64,000 nucleotides of DNA from Acidobacteriota bacterium (GCA_029263315.1 JAJCXR010000003.1:64615-128614); one strand, 5' to 3'; counted from the first letter of the stretch, positions 45,675 through 49,661 are shown. Made by a program: numbers and translations. Notes: generated by a model not told the origin, from the sequence alone.

Positions 45675-48600
45675 ATGTATCCGACTCCAAGTGCTCGTCG
45701 TCTTGGCTCTTCCCTAGGAGCCACCCTCAGCGCTCTGGTCCTCGGGCTTGCGGCCTACGGCCTGGCAGGTACTACGCCTGCATTTGCCGCCGGCCCCGGC
45801 TCGGTTGCGCCGACTACCCCAGTCTCCACTCCTGCGGCCGCCGCCGCGACATCGAGCAATACGCCGATGCCGTCTGATCTGACATCGACCTCGAGCTCCA
45901 ACACTTCGTCCTGGGGCGGACACGGTGGTGGTAGCCATGGAAGCAGCGGCAACCACGGTGGTGGTGGCGGCAACCACGGTGGTGGTGGCGGCAACCACGG
46001 CGGTGGTGGCGGCAACCACGGCGGTGGTGGCGGTAACCACGGTGGTGGCGGACACGGCGGTGGTGGCGGACACGGCGGTGGTGGCGGTCACGGCGGTGGC
46101 GGTGGTGGCGGTGGTCACGGCGGTGGCGGTGGTCACGGCGGTGGCGGTGGTCACGGCGGTGGCGGTGGTCACGGCGGTGGAGGCGACGGCGGTGGCTGTC
46201 CTGGTGGCCATGGAGGCGGCGGCGAAGATGACGACAACTGTCCGCGTACCCCCGGCTATTGGAAAAACCACACCGATGTTTGGCCGGTCGACGGCTTGAC
46301 CGTCGGCGGAATCTCCTACGACCAAGCCGATCTGCTCGCCTTCCTCAACTATGGCGGCTCCGACATGTCCATGAAGCTCGCACGCCACCTCACGGCGACG
46401 ATGCTCAATCTGGCCAACGGAACGGGAACCTCGATCCAGTCCGTCGTCGACGACGCCAATGACCTCTTGCAAAACAACCCACCGGGTTGCAATCCCCGCG
46501 GCAGCGTCAAGGCCATGGCCCGAGATCTCAAGAACCTCTTGGACGATTACAACAACTTCGGCGACTGCGGCGACTCCGGCGGCGGCGACGATGATGACGA
46601 CGATGACGACGATGACGACGACGACGATGACGACGATGATGACGACGACGATGACGACGATGACGACGGGACCTGCCCCCGTTCCCCGGGCTACTGGAAG
46701 AATCATCTCAGTGCCTGGCCGGTCGATAGCCTGACCCTCGGCGGCATCCCTTACGACCAAGCCGACCTGCTCATCTTCCTCCACTACGGTGGCCCCGACA
46801 TGTCCATGAAGCTGGCGCGGCATCTCACCGCGGCGATGCTCAATCTGGCCAATGGCGCGGGCACCTCGGTGCAGAGCGTCGTCGACGACGCCAATGACTT
46901 CTTGGCCATCATGCCGCCGGGTAGCCAACCGAGCGGCATGGACAAGACCTTGGCCAAGGACCTCAAGAATCTGCTGGACGATTACAACAACGGCGACGAC
47001 TGCGGCAGTGGCGATCCCGAGCCCCCGCCACCATGCTCCGCCGAGGCGCCCCTCGACCTCGTCTTCGTGCTCGACCTCTCCGGCAGCATGACTTCCAGCT
47101 TCCCGGCGGTCGGCAATCGCCTGGCCGCGGCCCAGACGGCGCTGCTGGCAATCAACGACCAGTTGCAAGCCCGGGGTGACGGCAGCCGGGCCGCCCTGGT
47201 GACCTTCGCAGGCTTCTGGACGGTCGAAGAAAACCTCAACCAAGCAGTGATCCTGCAGTCCGGCTTCACCTCGGATCTAGCCTCCTTGGAGCCGTTGATC
47301 TCGAGCTTCGATCCGATCGATATTCCGGCCGACGCCACGACACCCACGGCCCTCGCCCTCGAAGGCACCTTGAGCCTGTTGCTCGGCGAGTCGAACCCGA
47401 CCCACAAGCGGGCCATGGTCTTGGTCACCGACGGCGTGCCCAACATCGACCTCATGGGCCGCGGTGCCCTCGAGTACGAGTTGGAGGAGATCCAAGACAT
47501 CGACATCGAAGACGGCTTGGGCGGTTTCCTCAGCTGGCCGGCAGTATCACTGCTCGGCGGTTTCAACCCCGCCTACGGCACCTTTGATGGCCAAACCCTG
47601 AGCGACTCGATGCTGCAATTGGAGATCATGAAGTCCATGGTGCCCGACCTGCGCATTTTCGGTATCGCCTTGCAGGGTGACGGCATTGATCTAGGCACTT
47701 TCAATGAAGGTCTGCTGCGCTACAGCGCCGCCATCTCCGGTGGCGTCTCCTACAGCGCCAGCAACTTCAGCCAGCTCGAGATGATCCTCGACACCCTCGA
47801 CCTGGACTACGATTGCAGCGGCGATCCGCCGGTCGACCCCACCGAGCCTTCGTCGATCGGCGACCGGGTGTGGCAGGACGACAACGGCGACGGTGTACAA
47901 GACCCCGGCGAAGCCGGATTGAACGGTGTCACGGTGACCCTGCTGGACGACCAAAACATGGTGCTGCTGACCACCGTCACCACCGGCGACGGCGAATACC
48001 TCTTCGCCGGTCTGCCGGCCGGGGACTTCACCGTCGTCATCGACCCTGCCACCTTGCCGGCCGGCATCGATCAGGCGACCTATGACCTCGACGGCACCGA
48101 TACCTTGGATCAAGCCAGCGTCAGCTTGGCAGCCGGCCAGGACCTCGACACGGTGGACTTCGGCTATCGCGAGTTTGTGCCGCCGCCGTTGATCTGCGCC
48201 GTCGACACCTTCGACGGCCCTGAGCTCGATCCCGACTGGGCCTTCCGTTTCCTCGGCAACGCCTTCGAAGGCGGCGCCGAGATCGTCAACGGCGAGCTGT
48301 ACCTCAGCGGCAACGGCACCGAGCTTTACCATGGCGACGACAACGCTGGCTTCGTCTTCAAGACGGTGTCCGGTGATTTCCGCGTCGAGACCACCATCAC
48401 CGGTTTCCCGGTGGATATCGGTGGCCTGGTGCGCAAGGCCGGTATCCACGTACGGACGGCCTGGGACGATCCGCTGGCGCCACGGGTGATGGTCAATTTC
48501 ATCCCCCACCTGCCCAGCCCCGAGACCACGGCGTTGCAATTCGACGCCCGCATCTCCCAAGGGGCCACGGCGGTGGAGTTGGCCAGCAACGTGCTCGATG

Positions 48601-49661
48601 TCCCGTTGCCGGTGACCGTCGCCGTCGAGCGCCAAGGCGCCACCTTCACCGTCTCCTACAGCACCGACGACGGTGTGACGTGGATTCAGCCGACGGGTGC
48701 CCTCGGGGGCTCGGTGGCCATCGACGCCATGGACGCGACCTATGTCGGCATGGCCACCGCCTCCTACGAGTCGACCCAGGTGATGACGGCATCCTTCGAC
48801 GACTTCAACCTGTGCGGCTACGGTGGCGTGCCGGAGATCCTGCCGCCCCCCACCTCCGGCTGCGACGAAACCGAGGAATTCGACGTCATCTACCTGATGG
48901 ACCTGTCCGGTAGCATGGCGTCCTACTTCCAGAACGCCGGTACCGGGACGCGCCTCGAGGCTAGCCAGATCGCCCTGTCGAGCCTCAACGATTCCCTGGC
49001 CCTGCGGGGTGACGGCAGCCGGGCTGCCCTCATCACCTTCAGCGGTTTCCTCACCCCCGAGGAAAACCTGGCCGACGGCTACATCGTGCAGTCTGGCTTG
49101 ACCACCGACTTCGCCAGCCTGGAGACCTTGATCCAGAGCTTCGCGGTGGGCGATCTCCAAAACCTCGACACGACCCCGACGCCGCTGGCCTTGGAGGGTG
49201 CCCTGGAGACCCTCCTGGCGCAGGCGGATCCGACCCACACTCCGGCGGTGGTCTTGGTCACCGACGGTATCCCCAACATCGACATCCTCGGTGAAGGTGG
49301 CCCCGGGATCTATGACCTGGACGAAATCCAAGGCATCGTCCTCTACGACGGCGTGGGCGGCTTCCTGCCGGCCCTCGATGTCGCCCTGCTCGGCAACTAC
49401 AACCCCGGGCTCGACAACTTCGATGGCCAGGTCATGTCCGATGCCATGGTGCAGCTCGAAGGCCTGCGCACGGCGTTCCCCAGCATCGAGATCTACGGCG
49501 TCGCCCTGCAGGGCAACGGCTCGGATCTCGGCACCTTCAACGAAGGCCTGCTCGACTACGGGGCCTACTTGACCAACGCTCTATCGTTCAGCGTCAACAA
49601 CGCCGACGAGTTGGCCACCGCCATGGGGGTGCTCGAGTTGCAGCTCAGCTGCACACCTTGA
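45675..49661 (+). CDS. Giant secreted protein (1328 aa): signal peptide; Gly/His-rich low-complexity region; duplicated roughly 110-aa CPR(T/S)PGYWKNH…MSMKLARHLTA domain separated by a poly-Asp run; two vWA (MIDAS DxSxS) modules; Cna-B/SdrD-B-like domain; LamG/beta-sandwich-like region
   Basis: Start at ATG 45675 with SD aagagg. Signal LGATLSALVLGLAAYGLAGTTPAFA. (GGGGHGGGG)n. 29 consecutive Asp. DLVFVLDLSGSM and DVIYLMDLSGSM. GDRVWQDDNGDGVQDPGEAGLNGVTVTLLD. Confidence 0.7.
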   Translation: MYPTPSARRLGSSLGATLSALVLGLAAYGLAGTTPAFAAGPGSVAPTTPVSTPAAAAATSSNTPMPSDLTSTSSSNTSSWGGHGGGSHGSSGNHGGGGGNHGGGGGNHGGGGGNHGGGGGNHGGGGHGGGGGHGGGGGHGGGGGGGGHGGGGGHGGGGGHGGGGGHGGGGDGGGCPGGHGGGGEDDDNCPRTPGYWKNHTDVWPVDGLTVGGISYDQADLLAFLNYGGSDMSMKLARHLTATMLNLANGTGTSIQSVVDDANDLLQNNPPGCNPRGSVKAMARDLKNLLDDYNNFGDCGDSGGGDDDDDDDDDDDDDDDDDDDDDDDDDDDGTCPRSPGYWKNHLSAWPVDSLTLGGIPYDQADLLIFLHYGGPDMSMKLARHLTAAMLNLANGAGTSVQSVVDDANDFLAIMPPGSQPSGMDKTLAKDLKNLLDDYNNGDDCGSGDPEPPPPCSAEAPLDLVFVLDLSGSMTSSFPAVGNRLAAAQTALLAINDQLQARGDGSRAALVTFAGFWTVEENLNQAVILQSGFTSDLASLEPLISSFDPIDIPADATTPTALALEGTLSLLLGESNPTHKRAMVLVTDGVPNIDLMGRGALEYELEEIQDIDIEDGLGGFLSWPAVSLLGGFNPAYGTFDGQTLSDSMLQLEIMKSMVPDLRIFGIALQGDGIDLGTFNEGLLRYSAAISGGVSYSASNFSQLEMILDTLDLDYDCSGDPPVDPTEPSSIGDRVWQDDNGDGVQDPGEAGLNGVTVTLLDDQNMVLLTTVTTGDGEYLFAGLPAGDFTVVIDPATLPAGIDQATYDLDGTDTLDQASVSLAAGQDLDTVDFGYREFVPPPLICAVDTFDGPELDPDWAFRFLGNAFEGGAEIVNGELYLSGNGTELYHGDDNAGFVFKTVSGDFRVETTITGFPVDIGGLVRKAGIHVRTAWDDPLAPRVMVNFIPHLPSPETTALQFDARISQGATAVELASNVLDVPLPVTVAVERQGATFTVSYSTDDGVTWIQPTGALGGSVAIDAMDATYVGMATASYESTQVMTASFDDFNLCGYGGVPEILPPPTSGCDETEEFDVIYLMDLSGSMASYFQNAGTGTRLEASQIALSSLNDSLALRGDGSRAALITFSGFLTPEENLADGYIVQSGLTTDFASLETLIQSFAVGDLQNLDTTPTPLALEGALETLLAQADPTHTPAVVLVTDGIPNIDILGEGGPGIYDLDEIQGIVLYDGVGGFLPALDVALLGNYNPGLDNFDGQVMSDAMVQLEGLRTAFPSIEIYGVALQGNGSDLGTFNEGLLDYGAYLTNALSFSVNNADELATAMGVLELQLSCTP

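Follow-up and report, generated by a model that had tools for sequence, protein, structure and literature searches.

A predicted secreted, modular protein of an acidobacterium combines vWA, SdrD_B, and lectin-fold domains with two copies of a module from a large unannotated family

Among the described proteins that resemble the one analyzed here are the staphylococcal MSCRAMM proteins SdrC and SdrD and the adhesive modules of von Willebrand factor (VWF) and integrins. The A1 and A3 domains of VWF carry a Cys at both ends, as do the von Willebrand factor A (vWA) domains reported below. The closest relatives in sequence (P0001, P0002, P0003, and P0010) carry no annotation beyond "SdrD B-like domain-containing protein". 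We analyzed a gene for a 1328-amino-acid (aa) protein at positions 45675 to 49661 of a 64,000-nucleotide (nt) stretch of DNA from an Acidobacteriota bacterium (GCA_029263315.1 JAJCXR010000003.1:64615-128614), the whole of which is called the window. We hold with moderate confidence that the product is a secreted, polyanionic, modular, multivalent, cation-dependent adhesin or matrix-binding protein of an acidobacterium from the Thermoanaerobaculia/Holophagales neighbourhood. The coding sequence and the modules on which this reading depends are as follows.

45675..49661, plus strand: coding sequence, 1328 aa plus stop; isoelectric point (pI) 4.05, net charge about -147, K+R 3.1%
45915..46196, plus strand: Gly/His tract (aa 81-174), (NHGGGGG)x5 and then HGGGGG-type units
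46239..46568, plus strand: GYWKNH domain copy 1 (aa 189-298, Cys189...Cys298), from the HMMER family and an AlphaFold2 model
46587..46667, plus strand: poly-Asp run (aa 305-331), 27 residues; 18 GAC and 9 GAT codons
46674..47003, plus strand: GYWKNH domain copy 2 (aa 334-443, Cys334...Cys443), by homology to copy 1
47034..47816, plus strand: vWA domain 1 (aa 454-714, Cys454...Cys714), from Pfam; DLSGS at aa 467-471, TDG at aa 585-587
47853..48167, plus strand: SdrD B-like domain (aa 727-831), Pfam PF17210; DDNGDGVQD, a Ca-loop-like motif
48195..48815, plus strand: concanavalin-A (ConA)-like lectin/glucanase-fold domain (aa 841-1047, Cys841...Cys1047), from AlphaFold2 and Foldseek; Asp-box-like STDDGVTW
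48861..49652, plus strand: vWA domain 2 (aa 1063-1326, Cys1063...Cys1326), second Pfam stretch; DLSGS at aa 1076-1080

The vWA domains were recognized by two Pfam models, VWA_2 (PF13519; 62.3 bits against a cut-off of 27) and VWA (PF00092; 50.7 bits against 23.8), with two stretches each, and are 51% identical to one another. At the level of sequence, both copies retain the DxSxS...T...D pattern of a metal ion-dependent adhesion site (MIDAS), read from the motifs DLSGS, TTPT(A/P)LALEG, and VLVTDG(V/I)PN. The best stretch, aa 461-591, covers just model positions 1-117 of 174 for VWA, and the C-terminal third of the domain carries an insertion of about 60 aa, specific to the family and kept in the homologues. 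The SdrD B-like domain is matched along nearly its whole model (PF17210; 75.4 bits, cut-off 29.7, E 5.1e-21; positions 2-112 of a 112-position model), and SdrD chains in the PDB align to the same residues with E values down to 6.8e-22. Membership in the MSCRAMM group itself was rejected, as the scores for NF000535 and NF012181 were 44.7 versus 2500 and 42.7 versus 1700 and only the B-domain region aligned. NCBIfam matches to CglB, BatA, and cobaltochelatase were also discarded, being far under their cut-offs.

The ConA-like domain was sub-threshold in Pfam, with 16.0 bits against 32.4 for DUF1349 (PF07081) and 16.5 against 22.7 for GH43_C2 (PF17851), at E values of 0.007-0.01; its homologues P0034 and P0026 reached 31.1-31.3 bits, just under the cut-off. 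An AlphaFold2 model built from 20 homologous segments had a predicted local distance difference test score (pLDDT) of 94.7, and a Foldseek search of the PDB with this model returned 200 hits at E<=1e-3, the structures matched being legume lectins and the C-terminal domains of GH43 xylosidases (E down to 2.4e-7, probability 1.00, query-normalized TM-score [TMq] 0.52-0.67, sequence identity 11-22%). The confident model together with these matches indicates that aa 841-1047 adopt a ConA-like lectin/glucanase fold.

A preliminary description of this DNA had predicted a secreted protein of 1328 aa with two vWA modules and had proposed, from their MIDAS motifs, a role in adhesion or complex assembly. 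The length was reproduced, both vWA modules scored above the gathering threshold with DxSxS at aa 467 and aa 1076, and the proposed role fits an architecture of two vWA domains, an SdrD_B domain, and a lectin-fold domain. Its domain list was incomplete, since the SdrD_B and ConA-like domains had been overlooked.

Much of this architecture is shared with other proteins. The C-terminal 886 aa of the 1328-aa protein align with P0001 and P0002 at 52% identity and 99% coverage, and with further relatives at 99-100% coverage and 39% (P0003) or 42% identity (P0010, labelled "Acidobacteriota"). ConA-vWA-SdrD_B units are found in many other proteins, P0003, P0010, P0026, P0030, and P0034 among them. 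Judged from these sequences, the vWA-SdrD_B-ConA-vWA core recurs in this lineage of Acidobacteriota/Thermoanaerobaculia-type metagenomic proteins. Upstream of the core, P0001 and P0002 have one CPRTPGFWKNH domain each, and the two GYWKNH copies of the 1328-aa protein take the place of the first ConA-like domain seen in relatives. In the closest homologues, the GYWKNH domain is preceded by another unannotated extracellular module, of ~190 aa, with the pattern C.DE.W.DQYGG.G.HAMWLPGI...GSPKKEL...GPAFQVG.GANGKN.FG..W, located at aa ~30-215 in P0001 and at aa ~15-190 and ~195-375 in P0002, and present in three copies in P0046; no Pfam family covers it in the precomputed lists.

Several features point to work outside the cytoplasm. 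The plus-strand open reading frame (ORF) spans 45603..49661, and the ATG at 45675 gives the 1328-aa product. It has the following flanking and N-terminal elements.

45661..45666, plus strand: Shine-Dalgarno-like AAGAGG with an 8-nt spacer to the ATG at 45675, by direct sequence reading
45675..45791, plus strand: signal-peptide-like N-terminus (aa 1-39) with an RR n-region, a hydrophobic core, AFA before and AG after the putative cleavage site, and no lipobox
45792..45914, plus strand: Pro/Thr/Ser/Ala-rich linker (aa 40-80), from the sequence
49700..49735, plus strand: intrinsic terminator with an 11-bp stem (8 GC pairs), a 4-nt loop, and the T-run TTTTTTGTTG; the hairpin is 49700-49725

The N-terminus reads MYPTPSARRLGSSLGATLSALVLGLAAYGLAGTTPAFA up to the putative cleavage site and AG thereafter. 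Its n-region is basic, the hydrophobic core is followed by an AxA site, and a lipobox Cys is absent; the signal-peptide call was made by eye and with a simple heuristic. The 12 Cys residues lie at aa 175, 189, 272, 298, 334, 443, 454, 714, 841, 1047, 1063, and 1326, so that each globular module has a Cys at both ends, with SdrD_B as the sole exception. We infer that this bracketing is the signature of disulfide-stapled extracellular domains. The export that the preliminary description had assumed is thus supported by both the N-terminus and the pairing of Cys around modules, and the strong terminator it had placed at the gene end was found as well. The protein is equally acidic once the Gly/His and poly-Asp tracts are deleted in silico. 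Neighbouring cytoplasmic proteins in the window have pI values of 5-9, which indicates that the acidity is specific to this protein and not a halophilic-proteome trait. PEP-CTERM, LPXTG, GlyGly-CTERM, and the type IX secretion system C-terminal domain (T9SS CTD) gave no NCBIfam or Pfam match at E<=1, and the protein ends with ...ELQLSCTP within vWA domain 2.

The two GYWKNH copies are 78.8% identical in DNA (70% at third codon positions) and 75% identical in protein (85 of 114 aa; BLASTP E 2e-63). Within the family, they are 74% identical to each other and at most 61% identical to any other member; being mutual nearest relatives, they represent a lineage-specific duplication. Independent tandem duplications of the domain were found in P0121, P0128, and P0132. 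The duplicated module of roughly 330 bp that had been reported for this gene is therefore real, at 46239-46568 and 46674-47003. The CPRxPGYWKNH module is not peculiar to this protein but belongs to a family that is very large and unannotated.

The size of that family became apparent when 1.84 billion cluster representatives (clusters at 50% identity) were scanned exhaustively with HMMER: 2972 proteins passed E<=1e-3, 1177 passed E<=1e-10, and 33 passed E<=1e-30. A word-index search with a single 115-aa domain had found no match, even though stretches of 12 residues identical to it occur in database proteins; given the thousands of relatives later found by HMMER, this was a failure of sensitivity. 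A genome scan placed the domain in Thermoanaerobaculia, Krumholzibacteriota, Chloroflexi (including the cultured Herpetosiphon geysericola, with a homologue of 429 aa, and H. giganteus), Planctomycetota, Verrucomicrobiota, Myxococcota, and Gemmatimonadota among the bacteria, and in Bathyarchaeia, Methanomassiliicoccales, and Altiarchaeota among the archaea, with the best match being 60% identical to the domain in the window. A literature search for the motif "GYWKNH" found no paper.

Family members share a characteristic layout. Of 177 proteins, 101 have their last GYWKNH copy at most 15 aa from the C-terminus and 139 have it at most 40 aa away, a placement repeated in the genome loci, and 30 of the 177 have two full copies. 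Partner domains in 87 proteins were led by Calx-beta (n = 21), then DUF11, SdrD_B, CarboxypepD_reg, HYR, and PKD, all beta-sandwich stalk modules, with no enzyme domain among them. Signal-peptide-like N-termini were seen in 69 of 106 members that start with Met. Across 209 copies, W196 is invariant and W203 nearly so, and more than 80% of copies conserve G194, K197, H199, P204, G211, Y215, D230, L235, L239, A241, L244, N245, G249, A261, D262, P269, G271, S272, L289, Y292, and N293. The first and last Cys of the domain are both present in 138 copies, one of them in 37, and neither in 34; of the last group, 31 have a Cys three positions earlier, at 295. This co-occurring pair presumably forms a disulfide.

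No Pfam or NCBIfam model matched aa 189-298 or aa 334-443 at E<=1, and none matched the domain in other members, whether 18 segments at E<=10 or 10 full-length proteins. AlphaFold2 modelled the domain from an 18-sequence alignment with a pLDDT of 93.5 and a predicted template modelling score (pTM) of 0.89, with GYWKNH lying on a short helix and the rest made up of a beta-hairpin plus four helices. Foldseek found no neighbour of this model in the PDB at E<=1e-3, which is informative since the same search succeeded for the ConA-like domain, and the family may represent a new fold. A resemblance to designed armadillo repeats over 33 residues in a PDB profile search was rejected, because its total looked significant only through the summing of identical designed repeats, the four stretches scoring ~10 bits each with individual E values of about 5. 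Among viral models (BFVD), the only similar structures, at a TMq of 0.62-0.75 and 17-26% identity, were those of uncharacterized proteins: A0A481Z1W0, A0A481YQX6, and A0A481Z9G6 from Pithovirus LCPAC/LCDPAC metagenome-assembled genomes (MAGs) and A0A1V0SDM6 from Indivirus. Horizontal transfer could explain these matches, as could prokaryotic contigs that contaminate the bins. Taken as a whole, GYWKNH domains constitute a large, unannotated, autonomously folding extracellular family.

We considered whether the GYWKNH domain is a polymorphic toxin and rejected this, given that no gene family, and so no immunity gene, recurs next to it, that the domain also occurs in tandem and internally, and that its Cys pair co-occurs. 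The domain has an invariant Trp, several conserved aromatics, and conserved K/H/D/N residues, and its likeliest role is that of a terminal module for ligand binding or surface attachment. In one version of the latter, GYWKNH domains would be non-covalent anchors to the cell's own envelope or matrix, comparable to SLH, LysM, or T9SS CTD, and the vWA/ConA part would face outward. In most family members, the domain indeed closes the C-terminal end of a long beta-sandwich stalk with an N-terminal signal peptide, tandem copies have recurred independently in several lineages, as for many anchoring modules, and the 1328-aa protein has no other anchoring signal. However, the family spans diderm bacteria, Chloroflexi, archaea, and proteins of giant-virus MAGs, a breadth that allows no single envelope polymer as the common receptor. 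Nor is there a conserved partner or processing gene nearby; no neighbour gene family recurs beside GYWKNH genes, the best non-domain cluster being found at 6 of 80 loci. Unlike the usual C-terminal placement, the copies in the 1328-aa protein are N-proximal. We see anchoring as an unlikely, though still credible, role.

The low-complexity tracts of the gene are extreme. Tandem Repeats Finder (TRF) placed an array with a period of 21 at 45946-46087 (7.2 copies, 91% matches, score 200), an overlapping array with a period of 18 at 45954-46185 (12.9 copies), and a GAC/GAT array at 46586-46668 with periods of 9, 12, and 24, best described as three copies of a 24-nt unit (95%). The three DNA-level repeats of the preliminary description (the Gly/His array, the GAC/GAT array, and the ~330-bp duplication) were thereby all recovered, the arrays by TRF; the Asp run was given there as 29 residues and has 27. 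The 94 residues of the Gly/His tract comprise 71 G, 14 H, 5 N, 3 S, and 1 D. Within the window, both tracts are confined to the 1328-aa gene. Their near-identical units of 18-24 nt mark them as recent, and the tracts are products of recent slippage or duplication.

Poly-Asp binds Ca2+, and metal or cation binding by both tracts is chemically plausible. For the Gly/His tract the analogy is with the prion protein, whose HGGGW site for Cu2+ has HGG at its core (PMC2663819). A further case was found in P0126 (5977 aa), where the linker HHGGGGHG-DDDDDDDDD-SGDDD at aa ~5810-5865 separates two GYWKNH copies; since these are only 40-47% identical to the copies in the window, the His/Gly plus poly-Asp type of linker arose independently. 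With n = 2, this recurrence is a weak hint. Gly/Asp-rich linkers also join tandem GYWKNH copies in P0121 and P0123.

Such extreme tracts (94 aa of G/H/N, with 14 His in an HGG context, and 27 consecutive Asp, in a protein of pI 4.05 and a net charge of about -147) could be the point of the protein, which would then be an extracellular or cell-surface cation sponge for Cu, Ni, Zn, Ca, or Fe minerals, with metal sequestration or mineral nucleation as its primary function and the folded domains merely positioning the tracts. The match of HGG to the prion site is in keeping with this, and the independent linker of P0126 hints at recurrent selection. Yet the closest full-length homologues, P0001 and P0002, keep all folded domains and lack both tracts, and among 180 GYWKNH-family proteins an Asp run of at least 10 occurs in only one and a comparable Gly/His tract in none. 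This absence and rarity indicate that the tracts are accessory and lie outside the conserved function. Furthermore, the near-identity of the DNA units suggests a recent and possibly neutral expansion, and no metal-homeostasis genes are nearby in the window. A metal sponge is improbable in our view. A similarly low weight is given to the most far-reaching version of the GYWKNH findings, by which the ~110-aa module would be a new fold-level extracellular terminal-domain family, found in many bacterial phyla, archaea, and giant-virus MAGs, with a conserved binding or catalytic site (W196/W203, K197, H199, D230, N245, D262, and N293), and two copies would form a cation-responsive binding device together with poly-Asp and the Gly/His tract. 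If this were true, the HHGGGGHG-D9 linker of P0126 would reflect selection and not chance.

The repeats also raise the question of whether the gene is what it seems. The tracts could be assembly artefacts or neutral slippage, and the gene perhaps decaying, truly shorter, or frame-shifted in the population. Units of 18-24 nt that are 84-95% identical form arrays prone to mis-assembly and slippage, and no second copy of the locus was found: an exact look-up in a protein collection had no entry for the protein, of two metagenome scans aimed at close relatives, the first was dominated by matches to DDDDDDDD and the second gave only a 36%-identical fragment, and the genome scan gave no close relative. 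In addition, the penicillin-binding protein 2 (PBP2)-type transpeptidase of the same organism (window 12742-14502, minus strand) has its 100% identical counterpart, P0268, on a short Logan contig of 3.4 kb. Against this stands a frame that is open for 3987 nt through all three arrays, with every tract length divisible by 3, intact downstream domains that align with homologues from end to end at 52% identity, and the presence of both a Shine-Dalgarno sequence and a terminator. The gene is complete, and an artefact or a decaying gene is very unlikely.

A cation-dependent adhesin or matrix-binding protein would accommodate these modules as follows. The two MIDAS-type vWA domains would bind acidic ligand groups via a bound divalent cation, the ConA-like domain would offer a glycan- or protein-binding surface, and the SdrD_B domain would serve as a Ca2+-stiffened spacer, with disulfides, suggested by the Cys pairs, stapling the modules for work outside the cytoplasm. 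Two GYWKNH copies would give bivalency. The low-complexity tracts may plausibly act as flexible, highly charged spacers that concentrate divalent cations near the cation-dependent modules, with Ca2+/Mg2+ on poly-Asp and Cu2+/Ni2+/Zn2+ on the HGG units. Several points weigh against such an adhesin. No outer-membrane secretion or anchoring signal is recognizable in a protein that would have to leave the periplasm of a diderm cell. The Pfam match of the vWA domains spans only the first ~2/3 of the model, with the family-specific insertion in the remainder, and the ConA-like domain stays under Pfam thresholds. The signal peptide and disulfides are themselves predictions from sequence, and the low-complexity tracts could be functionally neutral.

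The surroundings of the gene are housekeeping or unrelated, which makes it a stand-alone unit. Upstream are upp, kynureninase, 5'-nucleotidase, a sigma-54 activator, and SbcCD, and downstream are a 1136-aa membrane protein and a MacB-type permease. The locus of P0001 shares no neighbours with the window and has no CPBP-like gene. The giant CPBP membrane gene that had been noted downstream corresponds to the ORF at 50146-53556 (plus strand, 1136 aa, about 15 hydrophobic segments). It lacks a Pfam match even at E<=10 but has the three CPBP/Rce1-type motifs, ordered as expected: EECLFR (aa 422), FGASH (aa 459), and HFAFD (aa 501). These motifs give it the look of a CPBP-like intramembrane protease that is highly divergent and of unusual size. 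No functional link between the two genes was found, the homologue's locus being without such a neighbour.

The PBP2 of the window is 54-56% identical to Thermoanaerobaculia and Holophagales proteins, and relatives this distant identify the host as a poorly sampled acidobacterium. The 1328-aa gene was not recovered from the public sequencing run that contains P0268; the repeats may have broken its assembly in that run. Exported proteins of the window are acidic, and two further proteins that are probably exported are a cytochrome-c7-like protein (29253-31094, minus strand; pI 4.47, 13 Cys) and an fn3/reprolysin-like metalloprotease (31473-34169, plus strand; pI 4.43, 13 Cys). Weak matches to squalene-hopene-cyclase repeats (prenyltransferase-like) were seen at 55941-56891 and 58156-60102, both on the minus strand, adjoining the MacB/FtsX-type permease at 53501-55936. 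The ORF that separates the two matches (56891-58201, 437 aa) has no Pfam match.

In kind, the protein is ordinary, another large surface protein of modular build from an acidobacterium that is uncultured, and current understanding is not overturned by it. It is most useful in pointing to a very large extracellular domain family outside curated resources. With about 3000 clusters at 50% identity and no solved or characterized member, the GYWKNH family merits a place in Pfam, a crystal structure, and screening for binding, and the 1328-aa protein supplies a natural tandem construct of the domain. The extreme, recently expanded His/Gly and poly-Asp linkers offer a system for asking if such tracts tune cation-dependent adhesion.

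Compared with the staphylococcal MSCRAMM proteins SdrC and SdrD, the protein shares the B-repeat (SdrD_B, CnaB-like) with its Ca2+-loop motif and the logic of a Ca2+-stiffened stalk; it differs in having one B domain only and no A-region, Ser-Asp repeat, or LPXTG, and in a host that is presumably diderm. With the MIDAS modules of VWF and integrin I-domains, both vWA copies share DxSxS, the downstream Thr, and the Asp of TDG, whereas here the match stops at model position 117 of 174 and a C-terminal insertion of ~60 aa follows. The Cu2+/Zn2+ site of the prion octarepeat (PHGGGWGQ) is likewise a repeated His-Gly-Gly in a flexible, extracellular, Gly-rich tract, but this is a chemical analogy alone and not homology, as Trp and Pro are missing here and the repeat is of 6-7 residues instead of 8. 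Legume lectins, the C-terminal domain of GH43 beta-xylosidase, and DUF1349 share the fold of aa 841-1047 at an identity of just 11-22%. Acidobacteriota relatives have one or no GYWKNH copy, sometimes at the extreme C-terminus (P0070, P0062, P0059, P0020, and P0024), and neither a Gly/His tract nor poly-Asp; their synteny is not conserved, and their N-terminal modules differ, being the HAMWLPGI module, DUF11, or an extra ConA-like domain. What the Acidobacteriota vWA/SdrD_B/ConA proteins P0001, P0002, P0003, and P0010 have in common with the 1328-aa protein is the core, with the same domain order, 39-52% identity, and the same bracketing by Cys.

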